The notes: generated by a model from the sequence alone, not told the origin. DNA of 21,031 nucleotides from Acidobacteriota bacterium (GCA_043740165.1 JAYUCR010000397.1:1-21031); one strand, 5' to 3'. Counted from the stretch's first letter, positions 50 to 21,031 are shown. A program made the numbers and translations.

Positions 50-3000
50 TCATCGAGCTCCGCCGGGCCCCGGTGACTGCTCCCGTCCGCCAGGATCGAC
101 GGCCTTCTCGCCGCTCAGCGTGTTCAGCCGCTGCTTCAGTTCCGGCTGGTCCGGATTCAATCTGAGGGATTCGCGAAAAGCGCGGACAGCCTCGTCGGGC
201 ATCCCGAGCTTGAGGTCGATCTCCCCGAGGAGCTCCTGAAGTCCGGCCTCGCTCGGAAGGCGCTGGATCGCCGTGCGTATCAGATCCAGCGCCTCGCGCT
301 CACGCGATTGATCGAGGAGCCATCTTCCCAGGTTGAGGTACGCGGGGACGTAGAGCGGATTGATCTGTAATGCGCGGCGCATTTCGCTCTCCCCTTCTTT
401 CGCGTTCCCGCGTTTCAACAGGGCCAGCCCCAGGTTGTGGTGCACGTCGGCATACCCCGGATCCAGGGCAGCCGCCTTGCGGTAGGCGGCGATTTCGTCC
501 TCGGGGCGGCCGAGCCGTCCGAAAACCGCCCCGAGATTGTTGAACGCGGAGGCGTAGGAGGGATCGATGACCGTAGCGCGCTCGAGCTCCTGGCGCGCCT
601 CCTCCAGCCGGCCACCCAGATAGAGCAGCCCTCCGAAATTGGTGCGGACGGCGGCATTGTCCGGGTCGCGGCGAAGGGCATTGCGGAACTGCGTCTCGGC
701 GGCCTTCATGTCGCCGCGATCCTCGTAAACCAGGGCGAGGTTGCTGTAGGAGCCCGCGAAACTGGCGTCGGCGGCGATGGCCCGATGAAACGCCTCGATC
801 GCCGGTTCGATTTGTTTCCGGTTCTTCAGGATGACGCCGATGTTGTTGTAGGCCTCGGCGTAGTCCGGGTCGATCGCGACCACCTTCCGAAATTGCTCCA
901 GCGCCTCGTCGGTCCGCCCCAGCCGGTCAAAGAGGATGCCGAGGCTGTTGCGGGCGTCGGCGAAATTGGGCTCGTATTCCAGCGCGCGCCGGAAGTGCGT
1001 CTCCGCCCCGGCCGTGTCTCCCTGATCGAGCGCCATGTTGCCGAGCAGATTCTCAGCCTCCTTGGAACGGGGCTGCCGCTTCATGTGCTCATCGAGGGCC
1101 CGTGTCGCGGCGGCGTAGTCCTTCTTCTTGTAGTACGCGCGCGCCATGTTCAGGCGGGCGATCGTCAGGTCCTCGGAAGCCGCGACGGCCTTTTCGAACT
1201 CCCCCAGGGCGTCATCGTAGCGGCCCTGGCCGAGCAGGATGGTGCCGCGGTTATTGTGCGTGTTCGCCGTCTCCCCCGCCAGGTACCCGAGAGATCGGAG
1301 TTTTTCGATCCGCTCCGCGTCACCGGCAGCGTCGGGGCTCGCGCCCGACGGCGCCGGGGGGACGCCGCCCGCCGAGGAGCTGGAGCCGGGAGGCATTTCG
1401 GGTGGCGCCGCCTCCGGCCCCGCGGCGACCCTGGCCGGCGCCCCGGTCGCCGCCGGGTTGGCGGGGTTCTCCCATGATGGAATGTAGGCTTCGGGATGCT
1501 CCTTCAGGAATTCCGGGGCGAACGCCTCGGTGATCGGCCGCCCGTCCATGTCCTCGCCCACGGGCAAGCCGTACAGGCGCAACAGGGTGGGGGTGATGTC
1601 GAGCACGGAGGCCTCATCCAGCTCGACCCCGCGCCGGAATTCCGGGCCGTGCAGCACGAGAATCCCGTACTTACGATGCCAGTCCGCCGCGGCCCCGTAC
1701 CCGATGCGCGACTCGGTGAGCGGACGATTTTCGCCGGTCCTGAATCCATGGTCGGAGAGCACCATCACCGTGGTCGGATGGATCCCTTCCAGAAGTCGAC
1801 CCAATGCGGCGTCGGCCTGGACGTAGTATTCATCCACGACCCTCCCGAAGCGCTGCCGGGATTCGGCGTCGATGCCCTGCAGCGGCGGCGGCGCATAGGG
1901 CATGAACAGGTGCGCCGCCGTGTCGGTGCCCTCGAAATAGACCGCGGTGAAGTCGGTGTCATAGCGCGCCTCGAGCGCCAGTGCCACCCTCTCGTAGGTC
2001 CTGCCCGAGGCCAGAAGCGTCTTGAAGTTCTCGACCAGCCGGCTCTGATTTTCCGGCAGCGAGCTCGGATCCGGAGGCATCCGCATGAAGGGCGTCAGAT
2101 CCTGCATCAGGATGTTTTCCGGCGTCACGGTCAGCGATGTCACCAGCGCGTCCGCCTCGGGGGGCGAAACCTTGCCTTCGCGCGCCCCGCCGTCGACGGC
2201 GCGCGCGCCGAACAGCTGGTACGCGACCCGGTCGGAGACCACGAACCCGTTCACCTGCTCGGCGGGATAAGTCGCCCACCACCCGACGATTCCGACCCTC
2301 ACCCCGCGCTCTCCGAGCATGTTCCAGATCGCCTTGACGCGGCGCTGCGTCGCGCTGACCGGGACGCGCTCCCCTTCCCGCTCGGTGTTGGCCACGAAGT
2401 CCAGAATGCCGTGGCGCGCCGGCACCACTCCCGTCGCGATGCTGGTCCAGATGACCGGCGAAAGCATCGGATTGATGCTGCGCAGCCGGGCCCGAACCCC
2501 CTCGTGGACGAGCCGGGCAAGATGCGGCATCCGGCCGCTGCTCATCAACGGGTCGATGATGTTCCAGTCGGCGCCGTCCAGGCCGACGAGGAGCACCTTT
2601 CCCAGGGCGCCCCCGCGCGTCGCCGTCAGGGGGGTCCCGTTGTCGGCCCGGATGCGGACCCCCGGAACCTCGCACGACAGGAGGACCAGCCCCGCCTCCC
2701 GGAAGCGATCCCCCAGGGTGCGGCTGAGCGCCGCCTGGAGCTCCTCGGTGTGCGTCCCGGAGATATCCGCATAGCTGGCCGCCGCCAGGGCGCCACGGAT
2801 CGCCTCCAGGACCCATCGGCTGATGGCGTCGCCTTCCAGGCGCGGTCCGAGGGTCCGGTGCACCTCGATCAGCCGCTCCGGATCGACGCGGTAGCGCAGG
2901 GTCACCGAGGTTTCAACTTCGGTCCCTTCGCGCGTGGCGAGCGGCCGGCGGGAGCCGCCCAGGGAAATATCGAGGGTCGCTGAACGGACGGCGTAGAGGC

Positions 3001-3199
3001 TGATCCGGAACAGCCCCGGCGGGGCGAGGTGCCATCCCTCGGGCACGATGCGCGGCGAGATGAGGCCGAGCCGTGAATCCAGAACGGCAGCCCGGCCGTC
3101 GTCTTCGGTGCGGCGCAGGCCGGCTCCGAGCCAGACGCATAAAAACAGCAGGAGGACGCCGGCGGCCATACGGCGTCGTCTCAGCACCTCCGGTGTCAT
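50..3199 (-). CDS. Membrane-anchored multidomain protein. It has an N-terminal signal/TM segment, a type I phosphodiesterase/alkaline-phosphatase-superfamily domain and a C-terminal array of TPR repeats.
   Basis: 1049-aa ORF. The N-terminus MTPEVLRRRRMAAGVLLLFLCVWLGAG looks like a signal/anchor. The stretch VLLVGLDGADWNIIDPL...VLSDHGF resembles Phosphodiest/AlkP-family metal-site motifs. The C-terminal half consists of repeated 34-aa TPR-like units (AxxYxxLGxxxxxxGxxxEAxxxxxxAL pattern, many copies). Stop TGA at 52-50. Confidence 0.75.
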   Translation of the reverse strand: MTPEVLRRRRMAAGVLLLFLCVWLGAGLRRTEDDGRAAVLDSRLGLISPRIVPEGWHLAPPGLFRISLYAVRSATLDISLGGSRRPLATREGTEVETSVTLRYRVDPERLIEVHRTLGPRLEGDAISRWVLEAIRGALAAASYADISGTHTEELQAALSRTLGDRFREAGLVLLSCEVPGVRIRADNGTPLTATRGGALGKVLLVGLDGADWNIIDPLMSSGRMPHLARLVHEGVRARLRSINPMLSPVIWTSIATGVVPARHGILDFVANTEREGERVPVSATQRRVKAIWNMLGERGVRVGIVGWWATYPAEQVNGFVVSDRVAYQLFGARAVDGGAREGKVSPPEADALVTSLTVTPENILMQDLTPFMRMPPDPSSLPENQSRLVENFKTLLASGRTYERVALALEARYDTDFTAVYFEGTDTAAHLFMPYAPPPLQGIDAESRQRFGRVVDEYYVQADAALGRLLEGIHPTTVMVLSDHGFRTGENRPLTESRIGYGAAADWHRKYGILVLHGPEFRRGVELDEASVLDITPTLLRLYGLPVGEDMDGRPITEAFAPEFLKEHPEAYIPSWENPANPAATGAPARVAAGPEAAPPEMPPGSSSSAGGVPPAPSGASPDAAGDAERIEKLRSLGYLAGETANTHNNRGTILLGQGRYDDALGEFEKAVAASEDLTIARLNMARAYYKKKDYAAATRALDEHMKRQPRSKEAENLLGNMALDQGDTAGAETHFRRALEYEPNFADARNSLGILFDRLGRTDEALEQFRKVVAIDPDYAEAYNNIGVILKNRKQIEPAIEAFHRAIAADASFAGSYSNLALVYEDRGDMKAAETQFRNALRRDPDNAAVRTNFGGLLYLGGRLEEARQELERATVIDPSYASAFNNLGAVFGRLGRPEDEIAAYRKAAALDPGYADVHHNLGLALLKRGNAKEGESEMRRALQINPLYVPAYLNLGRWLLDQSREREALDLIRTAIQRLPSEAGLQELLGEIDLKLGMPDEAVRAFRESLRLNPDQPELKQRLNTLSGEKAVDPGGREQSPGPGGAR

Positions 3200-3224: not shown

Positions 3225-5671
<2,447 letters not shown>

Positions 5672-5750
5672 GCTCAACTCCTCCGCCCGCCGCACCAGGC
5701 GGTGGGATCGTGTCCAGAAGATAAGGTCGGATGAAAGAGGTCAGGATACG

Positions 5751-12421: not shown

Positions 12422-14956
12422 CTACTGCGCGACGATATTCAGCAGCTTTCCCGGCAGGTAGATGATCTTGCGAATCGACTTGCCCGCGAGGTGCGCCTCG
12501 ACCCGCTGGTCGCCGCGCGCCAGGGCCACCGCCTCGGATTCGCCCGTCGACGCCGGCACGCGCAGGTGACCGCGGAGCCGCCCGTTGACCTGGACCACGA
12601 CCTCGACCAGGTCCTCGCGCATCCAGGCGGGATCGGCGGCCGGCCAGGGCTGCGCCATCGCCTCCCCCTTCCCCCCGAGGCCCTCCCAGATCGCCTCCGA
12701 GATGTGCGGTGCCAGCGGCTGCAGCAGGAGCGCCATGCTCATGCCGGCTTCCTTGATGTAGGGATCGTCCCCCGGCGCGGCGTCGCGGGCGAAGTCCTGG
12801 GTGGCGTTCAGGAGCTCCATCACCGAGGAGACCGGGGTGTTGAGGTGCAGCCGCTTCTCGATGTCGGAGGTCACGCGTTCGATCGTCTGATGGACCTTGC
12901 GCCGCAGGGCCGCCCGGCGCGCATCGTCCGCCCCGTCGAGCCCGGAGGGCAGGGAGGCCGCCGCGAGCGCCGCCGCGCGCGGCGCCAGCAGCCGCCACAC
13001 CTTCTCGAGGAACCGGAAGCACCCCTCGACCCCTTTCTCGTTCCACTCCAGATCCTTCTCCGGCGGCGCGGCGAACAGGGTGAACAGGCGCGTCGTGTCG
13101 GCGCCGTAGCGCCGGATCATCTCGTCAGGGTCGACGACGTTCCCCTTCGACTTCGACATCGCCGTCCCCCCCTTCAGCACCATCCCCTGGCAGAGGAGGC
13201 GGGTCACCGGCTCGTCGACGCGGACCAGGCCCAGGTCGCGCAGCACCTTGGTGAAGAAGCGGCAATAAATAAGATGAAGCGTCGCGTGGGTGATCCCTCC
13301 GACATACAGATCGATGGGGAACCAGGAAGCGACGATCTCGGGGTCGAACGGCGCCTGGTCGTTGCGCGGATCGCAGTACCGGTAGAAGTACCAGGCGGAG
13401 TCGAAGAAAGTGTCCATGGTATCGGTCTCGCGACGCGCCGCGCTGCCGCAGCGCGGACAGGTCGCCCGCACGAACGTCTCGGAGAGGGCCAGGGGCGATC
13501 CGCCCTGCCCGGTGAGCGGCACGTCCTCCGGGAGCAGCACCGGCAGGTCCCTGTCGGGCACCGGAACCACACCACAGCGCTCGCAGTAGACCACCGGGAT
13601 CGGGGTCCCCCAGTAACGCTGCCGCGAGATCCCCCAGTCGAGCAGGCGGAACTGCACCGTGGTGCGGGCGAACCCGCCCTCCTCGCCGGCCCGCGCCATC
13701 GCCGCGCGCGCTTCGGCCGAAGACAGGCCGGTGAAGCGCCCCGAATCGACGAGCACGCCGTCGGCGGTCATCGCCGCGAGGGGCGCTCCCCGCTCCGCCG
13801 GCGACGGAGAGGACTCCGGCGCTGGGGCAGCGGGCGCCTGCTCGCGGATCACGAACCGGATCGGCAGGCCGTAGCGCCGGGCGAATTCGAAATCGCGCTC
13901 GTCGTGCGCCGGGACCGCCATGATGGCGCCGGTGCCGTACCCCATCAGCACGAAGTTCCCGGCGTATACGGGTAAGCGCCCGCCGCTGCAGGGATTCCGG
14001 ACGACAAGCCCACTGTCGACCCCTTCCTTCTCCGCCAGATCGGCGCCGGGCCTGGTGACATCGCGCGCCGCGCCGACCCGCCGCCGGAATTCCTCCAGAC
14101 GAATCCCGGCGGGGCTCGCTGGCTCGACGCGCCGCAACACCGGGTGCTCCGGGGCGACCACGCAGAAGGTCGCGCCGAAGATGGTGTCGAGACGGGTGGT
14201 GAAAATCTCCAGCGCCTCCCCGGTCTCCGCGGACCCGTCGAGAATCGGGAAGCGCACCACGGCCCCAACGCTTCGGCCAATCCAGTTCTGCTGCATCAGC
14301 CGGACCTTCTCCGGCCAGCCCGGCAGCCGATCCAGGCCGGCGAGCAACTCCTCCGAGTAGGCGGAGATGCGCAGGAACCACTGCTCCAGCTCGCGGCGCG
14401 ACACGACCGAATCGCAGCGCCAGCAGCGCCCCGCCTCGACCTGCTCGTTCGCCAGGACGGTCTGGCAGGAGTCGCACCAGTTCACGTCCCGCCGGCTGCG
14501 GTAGGCCAGACCCCGCTCCAGCATCCGGAGAAAAAACCACTGGTTCCAGCGGTAGTAGTCGGGCCGGTGGGCGGCGATCTCGCGCGTCCAATCGTAGGAG
14601 AAGCCGAGCCGGCGGAGCTGTTCCCCCATGACGGCGATGTTCTCGTTGGTCCACTTCGCGGGAGGAATGCCGCGCTGAATGGCGGCGTTCTCCGCCGGCA
14701 TCCCGAACGAATCCCACCCCATCGGATGGAGCACCTGGTCGCCGCGCATCCGGCGGAACCGGGCCACCGCGTCCCCGATGGCGTAGTTGCGCACGTGCCC
14801 CATGTGCAGCCGTCCCGATGGATACGGCAGCATCTCGAGGCAATAGAACTTCCGCCCGGCGGCGCGCGCCGGCGCGCGAAACCCCCCGGCCGCGCGCCAG
14901 CGCTCCTGCCAGGCGCGCTCGATGGCGTCGAACTGATCGCGGTAATCGCCCTGCAT
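12422..14956 (-). CDS. leuS: Leucyl-tRNA synthetase
   Basis: Class I aaRS HMGH motif (PYPSGRLHMGHVRNY), KMSKS motif (VLKGGTAMSKSKGNVVDP) and a CxxC Zn cluster. The likely start is the ATG at 14956 (MQGDYRDQF..., matching the usual LeuS N-terminus). The ORF track offers an in-frame extension to 15034. Confidence 0.9.
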   Translation of the reverse strand: MQGDYRDQFDAIERAWQERWRAAGGFRAPARAAGRKFYCLEMLPYPSGRLHMGHVRNYAIGDAVARFRRMRGDQVLHPMGWDSFGMPAENAAIQRGIPPAKWTNENIAVMGEQLRRLGFSYDWTREIAAHRPDYYRWNQWFFLRMLERGLAYRSRRDVNWCDSCQTVLANEQVEAGRCWRCDSVVSRRELEQWFLRISAYSEELLAGLDRLPGWPEKVRLMQQNWIGRSVGAVVRFPILDGSAETGEALEIFTTRLDTIFGATFCVVAPEHPVLRRVEPASPAGIRLEEFRRRVGAARDVTRPGADLAEKEGVDSGLVVRNPCSGGRLPVYAGNFVLMGYGTGAIMAVPAHDERDFEFARRYGLPIRFVIREQAPAAPAPESSPSPAERGAPLAAMTADGVLVDSGRFTGLSSAEARAAMARAGEEGGFARTTVQFRLLDWGISRQRYWGTPIPVVYCERCGVVPVPDRDLPVLLPEDVPLTGQGGSPLALSETFVRATCPRCGSAARRETDTMDTFFDSAWYFYRYCDPRNDQAPFDPEIVASWFPIDLYVGGITHATLHLIYCRFFTKVLRDLGLVRVDEPVTRLLCQGMVLKGGTAMSKSKGNVVDPDEMIRRYGADTTRLFTLFAAPPEKDLEWNEKGVEGCFRFLEKVWRLLAPRAAALAAASLPSGLDGADDARRAALRRKVHQTIERVTSDIEKRLHLNTPVSSVMELLNATQDFARDAAPGDDPYIKEAGMSMALLLQPLAPHISEAIWEGLGGKGEAMAQPWPAADPAWMREDLVEVVVQVNGRLRGHLRVPASTGESEAVALARGDQRVEAHLAGKSIRKIIYLPGKLLNIVAQ

Positions 14957-15030
14957 AGAGGCGGATTCTAGGAGCCTGTCCGAGTATTCGCAAGGGCCGC
15001 GTTCGCCGCGCCGCGGCGAACCCGGAGGGC

Positions 15031-15053
15031 GCATGGGGATTGCGGCCCCATGC
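15031..15053. promoter_or_regulatory. Perfect 8-bp GC-rich inverted repeat GCATGGGG-N7-CCCCATGC in the leuS leader / divergent promoter region
   Basis: Read directly from the sequence. It is the first of four copies of a CCCATGC-type motif in this intergenic region. Confidence 0.3.
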
Positions 15054-15220: not shown

Positions 15221-15249
15221 TTGCGAGTCTGTCATCGGAACCTATATTC
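15221..15249 (+). promoter_or_regulatory. Sigma70-like promoter for the plus-strand operon: TTGCGA (-35), 17-bp spacer, TATATT (-10)
   Basis: Hexamers at 15221-15226 and 15244-15249 with an exact 17-bp spacer. The predicted TSS is near 15256, about 30 nt upstream of the first CDS, with a GGGGAGAGGGG SD in between. Confidence 0.4.
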
Positions 15250-15285: not shown

Positions 15286-16428
15286 GTGATGCAGGAAGCG
15301 ACGAGGCCGGTAGACATAGAGGAAGACCCCGGACCGTCACAGGGGCTCGACCTCATTGGCCTGCTCGCGGCGCCGGGGCCGATGGGGGCCGCGCTCCGGT
15401 CGGCGATGCGCGATCTCCCCCCCTCCGCGGTCCCGGGACTCGTGGAGCGGCTGGTCTACCACCGCATCGACGGCCTGGCCTGGCGCGCCATCGCCGGCCT
15501 TCCGGCGGACGAGATCGACCCCTGGCTCCGCGCCACGCTGCGCCGCCGGCACCAGCAGCGCAGCGCCGCGGTCCTGGCGCAGGGACTGGGGCTCGCCGAG
15601 GTGCTCGATCACCTGACGCGGGCCGGCGTGCCGGTCGCGGTGACGCGCGGGCTGCGGGTCATCGAGTGGATCTACCGTGACACGGGGGCGAGGCCGTTCG
15701 AGGATCACGATCTCCTGGTCCGGCCCGCCGACGAGCCGCTGGCGTGCGCCGTCCTGCAGCGCCTGGGGTACGAGGAACGCGCCCCCCGCCTTTTCCGCCG
15801 CACCACCATCACGCTGGACCTGCACACCGACCCGCTCGGAGCGCGCCGCCGCCCGACGCGCGCGCAGCTCTTCCCGATCGACGTCGAGGCGCTGTTCCGT
15901 GACGCCAGCCCCGGCTGGATCGCCGGCGGCCCGGCGATGATCCTGGCCCCCGAGGACGAGATCCTGCTGCTCGCGCTGCACGTCGTGAAACATTCCTTCG
16001 ATCGCCTGATCCGCACCGCCGACCTGGCGCACCTGGTCGCCGTGCACGGCAACGCCATCTGCTGGGAAAGGGTTCGGGAGCGCGCCGAGGAGGCGCGCGC
16101 CACGCGGCTCCTCGGCCTGGCGTTTGGCGCCGCGACGCCGTTCGGCATCACGGTGCCGGCGGCGGTGCGCCTGCCGGAGCCTTTCGCCGGCCTCGAAGGG
16201 CTGCTGCTCGATCGCGTCCGCGCCTTCCGTCCCCTCCCCTACTGCGGAGAGGTGCTGATGGCGATGGCCGCTCCGCGCTTCCTCGATCGCCTGCGCTACG
16301 TCCTCGATGCGCTCGTCCCGGCGGGCGAGGCGCCGGCGGGCGGCTGGTCGGCGGCGGAGATCCCCCGCCGCAGCGTGATTCTGCTCGACGGCGCCGCGCG
16401 CCGGATGCGTGAAAGGAGACGGGCGTGA
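15286..16428 (+). CDS. Uncharacterised nucleotidyltransferase-family protein (PF14907/NTP_transf_5-like; Pol-beta superfamily)
   Basis: 380-aa ORF. The block AGVPVAVTRGLRVIEWIYRDTGARPFEDHDLLVRPADEPLACAVLQRLGY matches the KG..-Y.dpg.R..sDiDlLV...d...a...L...Gy signature of this family as I remember it. The start is GTG 15286 or ATG 15289 after a G-rich SD. The stop TGA overlaps the next start as GTGA. Confidence 0.6.
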   Translation: MMQEATRPVDIEEDPGPSQGLDLIGLLAAPGPMGAALRSAMRDLPPSAVPGLVERLVYHRIDGLAWRAIAGLPADEIDPWLRATLRRRHQQRSAAVLAQGLGLAEVLDHLTRAGVPVAVTRGLRVIEWIYRDTGARPFEDHDLLVRPADEPLACAVLQRLGYEERAPRLFRRTTITLDLHTDPLGARRRPTRAQLFPIDVEALFRDASPGWIAGGPAMILAPEDEILLLALHVVKHSFDRLIRTADLAHLVAVHGNAICWERVRERAEEARATRLLGLAFGAATPFGITVPAAVRLPEPFAGLEGLLLDRVRAFRPLPYCGEVLMAMAAPRFLDRLRYVLDALVPAGEAPAGGWSAAEIPRRSVILLDGAARRMRERRRA

Positions 16429-16730
16429 TCGAACCTGGAACCGCACGTTACATCCCCTCCCCCGACGTGGTGACGCGCAACATCGCCGGCGAGCACCTGC
16501 TGGTGCCGGTGCGCACCGGTGTCGCGCAGATGGACTACCTGTACACCGCCGACGAGGTGGGGAGCGTCATCTTCTCCCTGCTCGACGGGCAGCGCGACGC
16601 GACCGCCATCGGCCGCCATGTCGCGGAGCTGTTCGAGGTCGACGCGGCGCAGGCCACGGCCGACGTGGCGGCCTTCCTCCAGGAGCTGGAACAGGCCGGA
16701 CTGGTCCGCCTGGCCGGGGAGGACCGTTGA
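16425..16730 (+). CDS. PqqD-family protein, a standalone RiPP precursor recognition element (RRE)
   Basis: 101 aa. The pattern VTRNIAGEHLLVPVRTG..YLYTADEVGSVIFSLLDGQRDATAIGRHVAELFEVDAAQATADVAAFLQELEQAGLV is the canonical PqqD/RRE pattern. The GTG start has AAGGAG 6 nt upstream and overlaps the upstream stop as GTGA. Confidence 0.85.
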   Translation: MIEPGTARYIPSPDVVTRNIAGEHLLVPVRTGVAQMDYLYTADEVGSVIFSLLDGQRDATAIGRHVAELFEVDAAQATADVAAFLQELEQAGLVRLAGEDR

Positions 16731-18031
16731 GCGCCTGCTCCCCGGTCACGTACCAGGAGTTCGGCAAGAGCGTGATGCAGGCATGCGCCGGGGCACGCGT
16801 GCCGCTGTCCGGCTCGTTCGAGCTGACCTTCAAGTGCAACCTGCGCTGCGTGCACTGCTACATCCCGGACTTCTCCGGGCGCGACGAGATGACCACCTCC
16901 GAGGTGCAGCGGATCCTGAGCGAGGCGGCCGATGAGGGATGCCTCTGGATGCTGCTCACCGGCGGCGAGGTCCTGTCGCGCGCCGACTTCCGCGAGATCT
17001 ACCTGCACGCCAAGCGCCTGGGGCTGCTGCTGACCGTGTTCAGCAACGGCACCCTCCTGGACGAACGGATCGCCGATCTGCTGGCCGAGTACCCGCCGCG
17101 GGGTATCGAGATCACCCTCTATGGGATGTCGGACGCGACGTATCTGCGCACCACCGGCTCACCGGGGCGTTTCACGCGGGTCAAGCGGGCGGTCGAGCTG
17201 CTGGCGGAGCGCCGCATCGACCTCACCCTGAAGGCGATCGCGATGGAGGAGCTGCGCGACGAGATCCCGGTCATGCAGGCCTGGGCGGCGTCGATGGGGA
17301 TCCGCTTCCGGTACGACGGCACCATTCACGGCCGGCTCGACGGCTCGCTCAGCCCCACGGCGGCGCGTTCCACCCCGGAGCGGCTGGTGCAGCACGACAT
17401 CAACGACCCGCGGCGGCGCGCCGACTGGATGACCTTCTACCGCGACTACGTCAAGCCGGCGCGCAAGAGCGAGATGCTGATGTCGTGCGGCGCCGGGGTG
17501 CAGAGCTTCCACGTCGACCCCAAGGGGACCCTGCTGTCGTGCGAGGCGCTCAACCTCGACGCCTACGATCTGCGCCGCGGCACGTTCCGGGAAGGCTGGT
17601 ACGGCATCGTCGGCCGCGTGCGCGAGCGCCGCGCGGCGGCCCACAACGTCTGCGCCGGCTGCGAGATCAAAGCCCTCTGCGATCGCTGCCCGGCCACGGC
17701 GCTGCTCGAGACCGGCAGCCCCGACGGCTGGATCCCCTACTACTGCGAAGTGACCCACAGGCGGGCCTCCTTCCTGGAGGCCGAGCTGGGAAACACGGAA
17801 GCCGCGGCGCGCTACATGGCCCACGCCGAGAAGGTGGCCGGCGGGTGGACTCCCGAAGGGGTCATCCTGCCGCGCGCCTCGGCGCTGCGCGCGAGCGCCG
17901 CCCCGGCGGGCGGCTGCGCGTCCGGCGGATGCACCTCGGGCGGGTGCGGCAAGCCTGCCGCGGCCGCCGCCAGTCCCCAGCCGTTGCAGATCGATTTGAA
18001 CCGCAGCAACACGATGGAGAGACAGCGATGA
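16727..18031 (+). CDS. Radical SAM / SPASM-domain peptide maturase (PqqE/sactipeptide/ranthipeptide-synthase-like)
   Basis: The CNLRCVHC (CxxxCxxC) AdoMet cluster is near the N-terminus and a GGE-like motif (LLTGGEVL) follows. A full SPASM signature is present: CGAGVQSFHVDPKGTLLSC is CX12GX4C, then CAGCEIKALCDRC, then a final YYCEV Cys. The start is uncertain. TTG 16727 overlaps the PqqD stop as TTGA with GGAGG 4 nt upstream. GTG 16772 and ATG 16775 are alternatives. The first ~100 codons of the ORF-track entry (16409-) are out-of-frame overlap with the PqqD gene and are not real. Confidence 0.88.
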   Translation: MSACSPVTYQEFGKSVMQACAGARVPLSGSFELTFKCNLRCVHCYIPDFSGRDEMTTSEVQRILSEAADEGCLWMLLTGGEVLSRADFREIYLHAKRLGLLLTVFSNGTLLDERIADLLAEYPPRGIEITLYGMSDATYLRTTGSPGRFTRVKRAVELLAERRIDLTLKAIAMEELRDEIPVMQAWAASMGIRFRYDGTIHGRLDGSLSPTAARSTPERLVQHDINDPRRRADWMTFYRDYVKPARKSEMLMSCGAGVQSFHVDPKGTLLSCEALNLDAYDLRRGTFREGWYGIVGRVRERRAAAHNVCAGCEIKALCDRCPATALLETGSPDGWIPYYCEVTHRRASFLEAELGNTEAAARYMAHAEKVAGGWTPEGVILPRASALRASAAPAGGCASGGCTSGGCGKPAAAAASPQPLQIDLNRSNTMERQR

Positions 18032-18219
18032 CACGCAGCCCCGAGAAGCCCGGCGCGCCGGCGCGCCGGTCGTACCACCCGCCGCAGCTGCAGCGGGTCA
18101 GCCTGGTCCCCGACGAAGCCGTTCTCGCCTCCTGCAAGACCGCGACCGTGCAGGGGCCGCTGGGCGCCTCGGCAAAATGCACCGGCACCCCTTCACTCTG
18201 CTCGCACGATGGCTCCTAA
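18028..18219 (+). CDS. Candidate RiPP precursor peptide, 63 aa: MTRSPEKPGAPARRSYHPPQLQRVSLVPDEAVLASCKTATVQGPLGASAKCTGTPSLCSHDGS
   Basis: It is not listed separately in the ORF track because it is the 3-prime end of the long frame-1 ORF 16939-18219. ATG 18028 overlaps the rSAM stop as ATGA and has a GGAGAG SD 6 nt upstream. The stop TAA at 18217 is overlapped by the kinase start. GC3 is high. The product has three Cys in its C-terminal third and a C-terminal Ser. Confidence 0.6.
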   Translation: MTRSPEKPGAPARRSYHPPQLQRVSLVPDEAVLASCKTATVQGPLGASAKCTGTPSLCSHDGS

Positions 18220-19132
18220 CACACCCCGTCCGTTGATCCTGGAGATCGCCGGCATCGGCCTCTCCGTGCGGCCGGCCGAGCCGGGGATCGATCTGGTCAC
18301 CGACGCCGCCCACGAGCCGTTTCTGGCGGAAGGGATCGGCGACGACTGCGCCTCGATCGTCCTGGCGCCGGTGGCCTCCACCCGGCCGCCGCGCACCAAG
18401 GGCCGGACGATCTTCGACACCGGCTGCGTCTGGCGTCTGGAGGAGAGCGGCGACGGGCACCTCCTGACGCTGCGCTCGCCGGTGTTCGGCGCCGACCCGT
18501 ATCTCGCGGTGGAATTCGACGCCCAGTATTCCCGCGGCCAGGGGGAAACGCTCGACGGCGGCCCTCATCTGCTGGGAGCGACCATGCACCCTTTCGTCTA
18601 TCCGTTCGACGAGGTGGTCTTCCTGGCCCGCCTGGCGCGCGGCCGCGGCGTGCTGGTGCATGCCTGCGGTCTCACCTATCGCGGGCGCGGCATCCTGCTG
18701 CTCGGCACCTCGGGCGCCGGCAAGAGCACCTCGGCGCGCCTCTGGTCCGAGCGCCCCGCCGCCCGCGTCCTCTCGGACGATCGCATCGTCATCCGCCGCG
18801 ACGACGAGGGTTATCGCATCTTCGGGACCCCCTGGCACGGGGACGCCGGGCTCGAGTCGCCCGGCTCGGCGCCGCTGTGCGCCGTCTTCATCCTCGAGCA
18901 GGCGCCGCGCAATCGCGTCGTCGAGATGCCTCCCTCGCAGGCGGTGGCCCAGATGATGGTGCGCGCCTTTCCCGCCATGTGGGATCAGGGAGGCCTGGAG
19001 TTCGCGGTGAAGTTTCTGTCGCAGATGACCGAGCGGGTCCCGGTGCGGCGGCTGCAGTTCCTGCCCGAAGCCTCGGCGGTCGATTGCGTGCTCGGGGCGA
19101 TCGATGGGGGGCTCGATGCCGAAGGGGCCTGA
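18209..19132 (+). CDS. HprK-like serine kinase (HPr kinase/phosphorylase C-terminal-domain fold; RiPP peptide kinase-like)
   Basis: 307 aa. The block VLVHACGLTYRGRGILLLGTSGAGKSTSARLWSERPAARVLSDDRIVI matches the HprK C-domain P-loop region (VHG..V...G.GVLI.G.SG.GKS..AL.L...G..LVSDD.V.I). The ATG overlaps the precursor gene end by 11 nt. Confidence 0.8.
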   Translation: MAPNTPRPLILEIAGIGLSVRPAEPGIDLVTDAAHEPFLAEGIGDDCASIVLAPVASTRPPRTKGRTIFDTGCVWRLEESGDGHLLTLRSPVFGADPYLAVEFDAQYSRGQGETLDGGPHLLGATMHPFVYPFDEVVFLARLARGRGVLVHACGLTYRGRGILLLGTSGAGKSTSARLWSERPAARVLSDDRIVIRRDDEGYRIFGTPWHGDAGLESPGSAPLCAVFILEQAPRNRVVEMPPSQAVAQMMVRAFPAMWDQGGLEFAVKFLSQMTERVPVRRLQFLPEASAVDCVLGAIDGGLDAEGA

Positions 19133-19136
19133 AGAA

Positions 19137-21031
19137 GTGAACGGGGGCTCTCCCGGGTCGAGCCCGGCCCCGCCGGTCCTCCTGGCGGAGCGCCAGGGAG
19201 TGGTGTTCGTCGCCACGTCACAAAGCGTCGACGGCCTGCGCGTCCCGCGGCGTTACTGGGGGACCGACATGGGTGTCGTGGCGATCCCGGCGCACGAGGA
19301 GGAGGTGCGGGCCTGCGAGCTGCTCCCCCCTTCGGATGCCGGCGCCTGGCCGCGCGCCCTGCCGCGCCCCGACCTGCTCTCTCCGGTTCTGTCGCGTCTC
19401 CTCAGCGTCGAGCACATGGAGATGAGTCTCTATCCGGGGCGCGACGGCCTGAAAGCGATGCTGATCGCCCCGGACGGGCAGCGCCTGCCGTTCCCGATCG
19501 CCCCCAAGGATGCGCTCGGCCTCCTGGCCGCGGTCTTCCACCATGCGCCGCGCGGTGTCGTCGCCCTGAACGCGAGCCGCCCCGGGCGGCTGCTCCTCGC
19601 CGTCCAGCCGGCCGCCCGGCCGCACGAGTACCGCGTGCGGCTCGCCGGCGCCGTGGCCACACCGAAGCCGGGCAGCCTGCCCGAGATTGGCGCCTCGATG
19701 TCGCTCCTCGAAATCCTGAACGAATCGCTCGATCGTCCCTCGGGATTGATGCTGGTCGCCGGGGGCAGCTCCTCGGGGCGCAGCACGACCCTGGACCTTC
19801 TGGCCGGATCGCTCCTGGCGCGCGGCCGGAGCGGCGGCCGGATCGGCCCGCGGCGCGAGACCGCGAACCCGAACCTCCCCTGGCTCGCCGACGCCGTCAC
19901 CGACTGGCCGTTTCCGGAGAGCCTCAAGGAGGCGGCGCCCGACTTCGTCATGATGGAGCGGCTGGAAGGACTGCGGCACCTGCTGCTCGCCGCCCGCCTC
20001 GCCGGGACGGGGACGCTGGTGCTGGCCGGCGCGCCCCCCGCCGAGCCGCAGGCGCTGGTGCGCCGCGTGGCGCGCGAGCTCGAGGCCGGCGCCGGACCCG
20101 AGGTGCCGGTGATGGTGCTGGCGCAGTCCCTGCTGCGCACCGTCTGCCGCGGATGCACCACGTGGACGGCGATCCCGGCGGCGCGCGCGTTGCGCCTCGG
20201 GTTCCACCGCTGGGATCTGGAGGAGATGGAGCGCCGCGGCGGGCTCGCCGTCCCGGCCCGCAAAGGCTGCCCCACCTGTGCCGGGACCGGCATCGCCGGG
20301 CTCACGGGGGTGTTCAGCTATGCCGGGTCGGACGGCCTCTCGAGCGCGCTGCCGACGCTGCGCGAAGAAGGCTGGCGCAAGGTTGTCGAAGGCATCGCCG
20401 ACGTCGATGACGTCGCGGCCCTGCCGGGTGGGCATCACGCCATGCGTTCCCTGCGCGAGATCGCCGTGCTGGCCGGCACGACGCCGATGGCGCGCCATGA
20501 GCCCGACGGCGTCGCCACCGCGGCGTCGGCCCGTCCGGTCGCCGCGCGACCCGCCGCGGCCCCGCCGGTCAAGTCCGGCGCCGTCGCGCGCGGCTCCTCC
20601 TCCGCCGACGTCGACATCCTCGTGGCGCTGTTGCGCGCCGCGCGCGCCGGGCAGCCGCCGCAGCCGGAGCGCATGGCCGAGCTGGCGCGCGGCGTCGCCG
20701 GCCGGGCGATGCAGGGCGAGCTCGACACCCAGCTCCAGCCGCCGCCCGCCGGCTACCACATGGGGCGCCGGGCGGTGAACACGGCGGTCCTGGCGGTGCG
20801 GATCGTGGCGGCGCTGGGTCAGACCGAGGACGCTCCGGCGACGGCCACGCTGGCGCTGCTCCATGACATCGGGCTGCTCGAGGCGGGTGTCGATCCGGGG
20901 GCCGAATCGGGCCCTCAACTGAGCGAAGCCGCTCTCGATCCCCAGGGGGCACGGATGCGCCCCGCCACCATGCTGCGCGCGCTTGGCCTTCCCGACGCCG
21001 AGCTGGCGGCCCGGATCGCCGACGCGCAGAC
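19137..21031 (+). CDS. Partial (3-prime end runs off the window) GspE/PilB-type secretion-ATPase-fold protein with degenerate catalytic motifs, fused to a C-terminal HD domain
   Basis: I translated this manually (frame 0, no stop to the window end, over 630 codons), and it is absent from the ORF track. It aligns by eye to GspE/EpsE. LMLVAGGSSSGRSTTL matches LVTGPTGSGKSTTL, with the Walker A Lys replaced by Arg. APDFVMMERLEGL matches DPDVVMVGEIRDL. The His box is lost (TGTLVLAGAPPA for TGHLVMSTLHTN). The tetracysteine Zn motif is kept (VCRGC ... GCPTCAGTGIAGLTGVF). A C-terminal HD signature follows (YHMGRRAVNTAVLAVRIVAALG ... LALLHDIGLL). The start is GTG 19137 (AAGGGG 9 nt upstream) or an in-frame ATG at 19104/19116. 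Confidence 0.7.
   Translation, partial: MNGGSPGSSPAPPVLLAERQGVVFVATSQSVDGLRVPRRYWGTDMGVVAIPAHEEEVRACELLPPSDAGAWPRALPRPDLLSPVLSRLLSVEHMEMSLYPGRDGLKAMLIAPDGQRLPFPIAPKDALGLLAAVFHHAPRGVVALNASRPGRLLLAVQPAARPHEYRVRLAGAVATPKPGSLPEIGASMSLLEILNESLDRPSGLMLVAGGSSSGRSTTLDLLAGSLLARGRSGGRIGPRRETANPNLPWLADAVTDWPFPESLKEAAPDFVMMERLEGLRHLLLAARLAGTGTLVLAGAPPAEPQALVRRVARELEAGAGPEVPVMVLAQSLLRTVCRGCTTWTAIPAARALRLGFHRWDLEEMERRGGLAVPARKGCPTCAGTGIAGLTGVFSYAGSDGLSSALPTLREEGWRKVVEGIADVDDVAALPGGHHAMRSLREIAVLAGTTPMARHEPDGVATAASARPVAARPAAAPPVKSGAVARGSSSADVDILVALLRAARAGQPPQPERMAELARGVAGRAMQGELDTQLQPPPAGYHMGRRAVNTAVLAVRIVAALGQTEDAPATATLALLHDIGLLEAGVDPGAESGPQLSEAALDPQGARMRPATMLRALGLPDAELAARIADAQ

Follow-up and report, generated by a model that had tools for sequence, protein, structure and literature searches.

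Gene sets that combine a PqqD homologue, an HprK-like protein named ScmC, and radical S-adenosylmethionine (rSAM) enzymes with a SPASM domain have been defined, only in silico, as the SynChlorMet (Scm) cassette (TIGR04248-04251). To our knowledge, the product of this cassette is not known and its precursor is not identified in the TIGRFAMs text. In clusters for phosphorylated lasso peptides, HPr-kinase homologues phosphorylate the C-terminal Ser of paeninodin-type precursors, the rest of the sequence mattering little, and the pseudomycoidin nucleotidyltransferase (NTase) adds one or two hexoses to the phospho-Ser (PMC8498205). Here, we analyze a locus that shares parts with both kinds of system. 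It occupies positions 15286-21031 of a 21,031-nucleotide (nt) stretch of DNA from an Acidobacteriota bacterium (GCA_043740165.1 JAYUCR010000397.1:1-21031), which as a whole is referred to as the window. Our preferred reading, with a probability of roughly 0.6, is that of a conserved maturation cassette for a ribosomally synthesized and posttranslationally modified peptide (RiPP), or one of that type, which heads a translationally coupled exopolysaccharide (EPS) operon in a Polarisedimenticolia-like genome. The gene set most likely modifies a small Cys-containing peptide that ends in Ser. An initial annotation of this DNA had already proposed a RiPP system, a reading that the comparative sequence evidence supports.

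A small peptide and its conserved gene neighborhood

The locus comprises six plus-strand genes that are divergent from leuS, each start overlapping the preceding stop by 4, 4, 4, 11, and 17 nt in turn, behind a predicted promoter; this layout is the one given in the initial annotation. The six genes stand as described there, and the end assigned to the operon does not: the window stops within gene 6, and a minimum of six further coupled genes lie beyond it. Two sigma-70-like sites were found in the region, where the mean of shuffled sequence predicts 0.1. A 68-kb ENA metagenome scaffold (L001), 99.99% identical to the window, was used as the full contig. The G+C content of the window is ~70%, and its features relevant here are the following:

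12422-15034, divergent from the operon: leuS
15221..15248, plus strand: candidate promoter, sigma-70-like (TTGCGA-16-TATATT), 38 nt 5' of the first gene
15286/15289..16428, plus strand: PF14907 nucleotidyltransferase, 379-380 amino acids (aa), by Pfam; the public gene call uses the ATG at 15289
16425..16730, plus strand: PqqD-family RiPP recognition element (RRE), 101 aa, by Pfam (PF05402)
16727..18031, plus strand: predicted radical SAM/SPASM peptide maturase, 434 aa, TTG start, by Pfam, Cys pattern, and fold
18028..18219, plus strand: predicted precursor peptide, 63 aa, conserved open reading frame (ORF), MTRSPEKPGAPARRSYHPPQLQRVSLVPDEAVLASCKTATVQGPLGASAKCTGTPSLCSHDGS
18209..19132, plus strand: HprK-like P-loop kinase of the Pfam ScmC family, 307 aa, by motifs, fold, and PF27840
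19116..21031, plus strand: GspE/PilB-like and HD-like protein, N-terminal 638 of 781 aa, gene cut by the window end

Relatives numbered 184 in a scan limited to one genome per species; 80 of their loci were retained, and contig look-ups added 5 more. The resulting 85 loci, in which the operon proteins were counted by tblastn, divide into 18 close (acidobacterial) and 67 distant ones. Relatives of the rSAM enzyme likewise form ~98 close clusters, at 62-75% identity, from metagenome-assembled genomes (MAGs) of Acidobacteriota/Polarisedimenticolia, and a second group at 38-48% identity whose members are ~70 aa shorter. The order PqqD - rSAM - peptide - kinase is kept across the 85 loci and about ten phyla, with distant representatives in Myxococcota, Chloroflexota, Nitrospirota, Desulfobacterota, Aminicenantes, Omnitrophota, WOR-3, Dehalococcoidia, and others. 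Since both gene order and peptide are kept in 85 other loci, chance can be excluded as the origin of the arrangement.

Components were counted in those loci whose sequence extends 3 kb or more past the rSAM gene (56 distant and 13 close). PqqD is present in 52 of the 56 distant and 12 of the 13 close loci and the kinase in all of them (56/56 and 13/13), followed by an S26 peptidase (46/56 and 11/13). The PF14907 NTase was counted in 19/56 distant and 12/13 close loci, and the GspE-like part in 0/56 and 13/13. Judged from these gene contents, the conserved unit is PqqD, the rSAM enzyme, the peptide, the kinase, and the S26 peptidase. The initial annotation had raised the question of whether its gene set co-occurs in other genomes. 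This is so for PqqD, the rSAM enzyme, the peptide, and the kinase; the NTase and the GspE/HD protein proved to be lineage specific, and the S26 peptidase had been missed. Two distant loci (L084:11083-12344 and L086:7602-9171) carry toxin-antitoxin-like and small mobile genes between the PqqD, rSAM, and peptide genes, including NTP_transf_2/HEPN, Uma2, DUF433, DUF5647, and DUF2283, so the cassette tolerates interruption.

The peptide itself has a leader with Y16-x-x-P19-x-L21, a junction E30-A-V-L33-x-x-C36-K37, and then C51, C58, and the C-terminal S63. In an alignment of 43 sequences, Y16 is invariant; P19, L26, E30, A31, V32, L33, C36, K37, C51, C58, and S63 are each at least 90% conserved, and the stretches between the Cys residues are hypervariable. 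A homologous small ORF lies between the rSAM and kinase genes in essentially every nontruncated locus, across phyla; the initial annotation would have counted a lack of such conservation against its reading. A profile search of 5.8 billion proteins retrieved 510 peptide clusters at E <= 1e-3, all 53-70 aa long, all annotated as hypothetical, and none with a Pfam domain. Among the best 120 of these 510 clusters, 120/120 end in Ser, as the initial annotation had noted for the precursor, and 114/120 have exactly three Cys; a few peptides in the wider genome set end in Thr instead. A short precursor with a conserved leader and a variable core, beside an RRE and modifying enzymes and kept across genomes, is the general signature of a RiPP cluster.

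The peptide of the window, which is short and has no Pfam or NCBIfam match, lies in high-GC DNA rich in spurious ORFs. It might thus be a nonfunctional overlap between the rSAM and kinase genes, with the enzymes acting on another substrate. The conservation data contradict this explanation, which we regard as exceedingly improbable: protein-level conservation of the ORF, invariant residues included, reaches from Acidobacteriota to Chloroflexota and Nitrospirota, the profile search retrieved its 510 clusters from 5.8 billion sequences, a GGAG ribosome-binding site precedes its start by ~7 nt, and start and rSAM stop codon overlap as ATGA. Residues 33-37 (window 18124-18138) read L-x-x-C followed by the invariant Lys and resemble a lipobox. 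A lipoprotein reading of this junction was rejected, as the leader is charged and without a hydrophobic h-region.

Predicted recognition and tailoring enzymes

In the proposed mechanism, the PqqD RRE would first bind the leader and present the peptide. The PqqD protein is recognized by Pfam (PF05402, E=2.1e-14), and its best NCBIfam matches are two lasso PqqD chaperone (B1) models, both below the cut-off (32.8 versus 70). It is 38% identical (1.9e-12) to the PqqD of a lasso-type cluster, a similarity equal to that with a distant cassette PqqD. The leader points the same way. YxxPxL is a motif of lasso precursors at leader positions -17 to -12 (PMC10368454), and the Y-x-x-P-x-[LIV] of the cassette leaders ties these peptides to lasso clusters. 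One related contig has both types of system side by side: a lasso-type set (L087:178-5398) with a PF14907 NTase, a 2-oxoglutarate oxygenase, an Asn synthase, a peptide of 54 aa whose last residue is Thr, an HprK-like kinase, and PqqD lies 3 kb upstream of a PqqD - rSAM - peptide - ScmC - S24 - C25 cassette (L087:8255-18278), and the leader motif [RK]KxYx[RK]P occurs in both peptides.

The rSAM/SPASM enzyme would then cross-link the core via its conserved Cys residues. Pfam assigns the Radical_SAM domain (E=2.5e-21) and detects no SPASM domain (PF13186) in the window proteins. The enzyme has its CxxxCxxC motif at C37/C41/C44 and seven SPASM Cys at C254, C272, C309, C312, C318, C321, and C340. 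In an alignment of 18 homologues, this motif and the seven SPASM Cys (CX..GX4C / CX2CX5CX3C / C) are invariant, and the homologues are annotated as SPASM proteins by JGI. The best PDB matches of an AlphaFold2 (AF2) model are PqqE (top), SuiB, SkfB, anSME, and CteB. We retain the SPASM assignment despite the Pfam result because of the invariant seven-Cys pattern and these closest folds. The likeliest outcome of the rSAM reaction, by analogy with the sacti- and ranthipeptide enzymes, would be a thioether of their kind, to which we give about even odds; the three conserved Cys of the peptide are compatible with a thioether and are not proof of it. Every curated NCBIfam maturase model scores the enzyme below its cut-off (StsB, 65.2 versus 625; AlbA, 45.2 versus 850; PapB, 44 versus 340; SkfB, 42.6 versus 300). 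The acidobacterial enzymes carry a C-terminal extension of ~90 aa (window 17760-18031) that is absent from the distant group and contains a conserved AHAxxVAxGWTPxGxILPRA stretch and a Cys-rich CxxGGCxxxGC tail; for residues 385-434, the AF2 model has a confidence below 50.

PqqD, an rSAM/SPASM enzyme, and a peptidase are also the architecture of PQQ and mycofactocin biosynthesis, in which a few invariant residues become a small molecule and the rest of the peptide is discarded. A peptide-derived cofactor of this type would agree with the presence of MftC and PqqE among the best full-length NCBIfam alignments of the rSAM enzyme, with PqqE as top structural match, and with an invariant C-terminal residue, as in MftA. 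The equivalog cut-offs are missed by far (MftC, 77.6 versus 265; PqqE, 66.3 versus 381.35), and neither the Glu-x3-Tyr nor the C-terminal Val-Tyr signature of the PQQ and mycofactocin precursors is present in the peptide. Its hypervariable core on a three-Cys frame is typical of cross-linked RiPPs instead. Nor do partner dehydrogenases recur near the cassette in the 85 loci, where the recurring neighbors are envelope/EPS genes. We therefore rate a cofactor as decidedly unlikely.

Next, the kinase would phosphorylate the C-terminal Ser. Its P-loop reads GTSGAGKST and is accompanied by an SDD motif, and its PEPCK/HprK P-loop fold together with GxSGxGKS and DD places it in the HPr kinase/phosphorylase superfamily. 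It is not a bona fide HprK/P by threshold (TIGR00679, 18.3 versus 240), and its match to Hpr_kinase_C (PF07475; 3.5e-4, 20.6 bits) stays under the gathering score of 33.3. By precomputed Pfam assignment (PF27840), it is a member of the separate ScmC family, and ScmC is also its best NCBIfam match (37.7 versus a cut-off of 125). By analogy with paeninodin-type lasso clusters, it probably acts on the C-terminal Ser.

The ScmC assignment raises the question of whether the locus is simply a diverged member of a catalogued system, that is, of the SynChlorMet cassette or of the phosphorylated lasso clusters. ScmD, ScmE, and ScmF are weakly matched as well, and the leader motif, PqqD, kinase, and NTase are common to lasso clusters. 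The chance that this explains the locus is small in our judgment. All Scm models score far below their cut-offs (ScmC as given above; ScmD, 17.6 versus 100; ScmE, 69.6 versus 400; ScmF, 38.6 versus 400), and there is one rSAM gene rather than two. The window has no Asn-synthetase-like cyclase or transglutaminase-like B2 gene, as the initial annotation had observed; the same holds for the full contig, and no lasso cyclase or B2 protease recurs in the 85 loci. The Asn_synthase gene of L087 belongs to the separate adjacent cluster described above.

Under the preferred reading, the PF14907 enzyme, where present, would decorate the phosphate. Pfam identifies the family (E=7.4e-31) and the DHD motif is present; a PDB sequence search with the NTase gave no match. 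The enzyme occurs in 16/18 close and 21/67 distant loci and is thus an accessory, lineage-specific tailoring enzyme. That it acts as in pseudomycoidin is a tentative assignment by analogy, somewhat short of even odds. In two loci (L055 and L062) it is fused to the S26 peptidase, a parallel to the occasional NTase-B2 protease fusions of lasso clusters (PMC8498205).

The second accessory is the GspE-like protein, whose T2SSE match (E=1.7e-6) is just over the gathering score. Its Walker A motif is GGSSSGRST, with Arg in place of the Lys of the expected GxxxxGK[ST], and in all nine GspE-like orthologues this Lys is Arg or Cys, the tetracysteine motif being kept. Its scores fall below the GspE/PilB equivalog cut-offs (39.3 versus 675 and 35 versus 630). 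Pfam does not detect HD (PF01966) in the window proteins. The C-terminal half of this protein is degenerate HD(-GYP)-like: it has an LLHDxG motif and is matched in BLAST by stand-alone HD_5 proteins of related loci. The GspE-like part is confined to the acidobacterial clade, and the HD half recurs as separate HD_5 proteins in seven distant loci. The substituted Walker A and the HD_5-linked C-terminal half make pseudo-GspE/HD a fair label, and the protein is probably a regulatory or scaffolding accessory.

The domain assignments in the initial annotation thus fare well, if not always by the profiles named there. Pfam finds PF14907, PF05402, Radical_SAM, and T2SSE, leaves PF07475 below threshold, and does not detect PF13186 or PF01966. 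The PqqD, rSAM-SPASM, and HprK-like identities hold through Pfam, Cys pattern, folds, and motifs taken together, and the catalytically degenerate secretion-ATPase/HD protein is recovered through the Walker A substitutions in nine orthologues, LLHDxG, and the HD_5 links. The link that it drew to the kinase-NTase tailoring pair of lasso clusters is strengthened by the YxxPxL leader, the lasso B1 models that match PqqD best, and the lasso-type cluster 3 kb from a cassette in L087.

S26 peptidase and cell-surface context

The full contig shows at least six further coupled genes beyond the window end, with junctions of -4 to +8 nt. The 781-aa GspE-like gene is followed by genes for a 471-aa protein, a Wzc-type chain-length/tyrosine kinase, a Wzy_C protein, a flippase-like protein with weak Polysacc_synt_3 and MatE matches, and glycosyltransferases. 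The best NCBIfam match of the Wzy_C protein, below cut-off, is a putative O-glycosylation ligase. Coupling to Wza, Wzc, Wzy_C, flippase, and glycosyltransferase genes downstream makes the six genes of the window the head of an EPS operon. The 471-aa protein provides the peptidase of the conserved unit:

L001:13250-14665, ~1 kb past the window end: S26-Wza fusion, 471 aa, with S26 domain, transmembrane segment, and Poly_export + SLBB

Residues 15-125 of this protein are an S24/S26 peptidase domain, and the remainder, Poly_export and SLBB, is Wza/EpsE-like. A simple hydropathy scan places a hydrophobic segment at ~151-172, preceded by RRRPRFVRR, and the S26 domain is predicted to lie on the cytoplasmic side of the membrane. 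The fusion recurs in 11/13 acidobacterial loci, with the order kinase - GspE/HD - S26-Wza - Wzc - Wzy_C - flippase kept; in distant loci, S26 is a stand-alone gene of 140-190 aa right after the kinase gene. We know of no prior description of a SipW/archaeal-type S26 peptidase fused to a Wza-like exporter. All 32 of 32 S26 sequences keep the boxes G-x-S-M-x-P, H-R, and G-D without change (S38, H75, D94), so the catalytic motifs are intact, and the Ser and His boxes are of the SipW/archaeal/endoplasmic reticulum-type signature. TIGR02228 gives 53.4 and 50.1 for stand-alone forms and 34 for the fused form, at a cut-off of 51.85. In the same type of hydropathy scan, the S26 proteins have no N-terminal hydrophobic anchor, and the transmembrane segment comes after the domain.

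The S26 domain would remove the leader at the cytoplasmic face of the inner membrane, a role proposed by analogy that we hold as likely to be right as wrong. Its fusions to the NTase, to a GNAT domain, and to Wza tie the parts of the system together. The GNAT fusion was seen in a deltaproteobacterial locus (L052:12320-13372), where S26 is joined to an acetyltransferase, and suggests acetylation as an alternative tailoring step. An attempt to name the leader cleavage site by the S26 "-3/-1 small residue" rule was abandoned, the two residues before the junction Cys being too variable.

The last proposed step is that the product would leave the cell with, or act on, the EPS/envelope machinery. 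Outside the acidobacterial clade, Wzz-type genes occur near the cassette in 10 distant loci. A second partner, found in 24 loci (including L022, L058, and L085-L088), is a large secreted Peptidase_C25 protein of the gingipain family, 800 to 2312 aa long, with a Sec signal peptide; the C25 proteins beside the cassette carry CLIPPER/DUF11 repeats. In Myxococcota the C25 gene lies directly upstream; in Chloroflexota and the contig-look-up loci it is the next gene after S26, with a 4-nt overlap between the two in L087 and L088. Because the EPS and C25 partners are both cell-surface systems, an envelope or matrix role is suggested. The Lys that invariably follows C36 might be suited to cleavage of the gingipain type. 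An "ABC" cluster in the distant loci is no evidence of a dedicated transporter, as single linkage had mixed ABC-F proteins with ordinary ABC ATPases.

These neighbors permit a more far-reaching explanation, in which the modified peptide is part of a cell-surface polymer. It would carry a phospho-Ser glycosylated by the NTase, be joined covalently through the phosphate to the exopolysaccharide made by the downstream genes, and act there as primer, cap, or anchor, the exporter of Wza type being physically coupled to leader removal; the giant gingipain-like C25 surface protein would take over its processing or attachment in other phyla. The hexoses that the pseudomycoidin NTase puts on phospho-Ser (PMC8498205) would agree with such a link, as would the S26-Wza fusion in 11/13 acidobacterial loci, the translational coupling of at least 12 genes, the Wzz-type genes, the C25 genes with their 4-nt overlaps, and the O-glycosylation ligase match of Wzy_C. 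A covalent link does not follow from adjacency or fusion, however, and at least 22/56 distant loci, a lower bound from BLAST with few queries, have no C25 or EPS-type gene within ~10 kb. We know of no precedent of a ribosomal peptide priming a polysaccharide. On balance, we consider this explanation unlikely, and a RiPP-type cassette at the head of an EPS operon remains the reading that we prefer.

Several points weigh against that preference. The rSAM enzyme lies under all curated cut-offs, its best partial matches are AhbD/NirJ, MftC, and PqqE, and its chemistry is not readable from the sequence; the chemical steps (thioether, phospho-Ser, and glycosyl) are all ones that we infer by analogy. 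The kinase need not act on the C terminus, for the HprK-type RiPP kinase BsfK acts on Ser3 (PMC10368454). The NTase is lacking in about two thirds of the distant loci. Small residues do not consistently precede the junction Cys, which leaves no clean S26 site to name, and the S26 enzyme could serve neighboring secreted proteins instead. Finally, the relatives are all MAGs or metagenome contigs, with no cultured strain identified among them.

Beyond leuS, the upstream genes are housekeeping ones (lptE, holA, guaA, dnaE, metK, ahcY) and one for a TPR/phosphodiesterase protein. The latter (window 50-3199, minus strand, 1049 aa) combines Band 7/SPFH, a type I phosphodiesterase/nucleotide pyrophosphatase domain, and a long TPR array. 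Adjoining metK and ahcY genes lie at 3225-5695 on the minus strand, ~10 kb upstream of the rSAM operon, and their proximity to it is probably coincidental housekeeping. An Rfam scan of the window found no RNA family and thus no riboswitch in the spacer between leuS and the operon. Long antisense ORFs of 290-566 aa on the minus strand cover real genes at 15337-16446, 17159-18034, 18098-19216, and 19218-20918; they have no support as genes, and such shadowing is typical at >=70% G+C. Six "recurrent upstream ORFs" from ORF clustering, without Pfam match, were likewise discarded as shadow ORFs of high-GC DNA. A second metagenome contig (L002, ERZ27315235) is 99.9% identical to the window only from 14968, in the leuS start region, onward; upstream of the equivalent position it has different genes (EamA, MTTB, Met_synt_B12). 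Behind this breakpoint may lie a strain rearrangement, movement of the cassette-plus-EPS locus as a whole, or an assembly chimera.

Comparison with known systems

The initial annotation regarded the combination as an undescribed class. No paper describing the cassette was found in the open-access literature, with most subscription journals outside that scope, which agrees with the claim; the papers retrieved concerned lasso peptides or unrelated subjects. The label needs qualifying all the same: with the SynChlorMet cassette and the Pfam ScmC family, database curators had already noticed and named distant sets of PqqD, HprK-like, and rSAM/SPASM proteins. If the proposed chemistry is right, the locus would represent a new RiPP class that joins an rSAM/SPASM core reaction to kinase and NTase tailoring, hitherto known from lasso peptides only. 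The family is large, with at least 510 precursor clusters, almost all from uncultured soil and sediment bacteria, and would amount to a sizeable unexplored peptide chemistry. Its repeated link to EPS export or to giant secreted C25 proteases suggests a cell-surface or biofilm-matrix role rather than that of a classical antibiotic; should the polymer explanation be true after all, a ribosomal peptide would serve as primer, cap, or anchor of a cell-surface polymer.

Compared with SynChlorMet, the cassette has one rSAM gene where SynChlorMet has two, its precursor family can be identified, and its core includes an S26 peptidase. PQQ (PqqA/D/E) and mycofactocin (MftA/B/C) share with it a small precursor, a PqqD-type chaperone, an rSAM/SPASM enzyme, and a dedicated peptidase, and the glycosylated product of mycofactocin matches the glycosyl tailoring proposed here; the hypervariable core and the envelope/EPS genes in place of dehydrogenases set the cassette apart. 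The peptidase has its relatives in SipW and archaeal signal peptidase I, with which it shares the Ser (GxSMxP), His (HR), and GD boxes. SodX, the S26-family maturation protease of Ni-superoxide dismutase, is a precedent of a soluble S26 enzyme that removes a propeptide, and we know of no report of a SipW-type S26 enzyme as RiPP leader peptidase. Points of difference are the N-terminal anchor, which the hydropathy scan does not show in the S26 domain of the cassette, the predicted cytoplasmic location, the fusions to Wza, NTase, or GNAT, and a presumed substrate without signal peptide.

Two more kinds of known system are close to the cassette. Sacti- and ranthipeptide systems (AlbA, SkfB, CteB, PapB, StsB) likewise use a seven-Cys SPASM rSAM enzyme, a Cys-containing core, and an RRE, and the fold of the enzyme studied here is near those of SkfB and CteB. 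It resembles them in CxxxCxxC motif and, by Cys pattern and fold, in SPASM, and lies outside their curated families; the RRE is a separate protein here and an N-terminal domain of the rSAM enzyme there, and the kinase, NTase, and S26 peptidase are not theirs. The paeninodin, pseudomycoidin, and Bradymonas Bsf lasso clusters have in common with the cassette a stand-alone PqqD/B1 RRE, a YxxPxL leader, an HPr-kinase homologue, a PF14907 NTase, and a Ser-ending precursor (PMC8498205, PMC10368454), and all of these were found in the window. The Asn-synthetase-like cyclase (C) and transglutaminase-like B2 are absent from window and full contig; an rSAM/SPASM enzyme and an S26 (SipW-type) peptidase replace them, and three conserved Cys mark a core that in lasso peptides has an N-terminal Gly and an Asp/Glu for the macrolactam. 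The system would work like a hybrid that puts a sacti/ranthipeptide core under the recognition and tailoring of phosphorylated lasso peptides.

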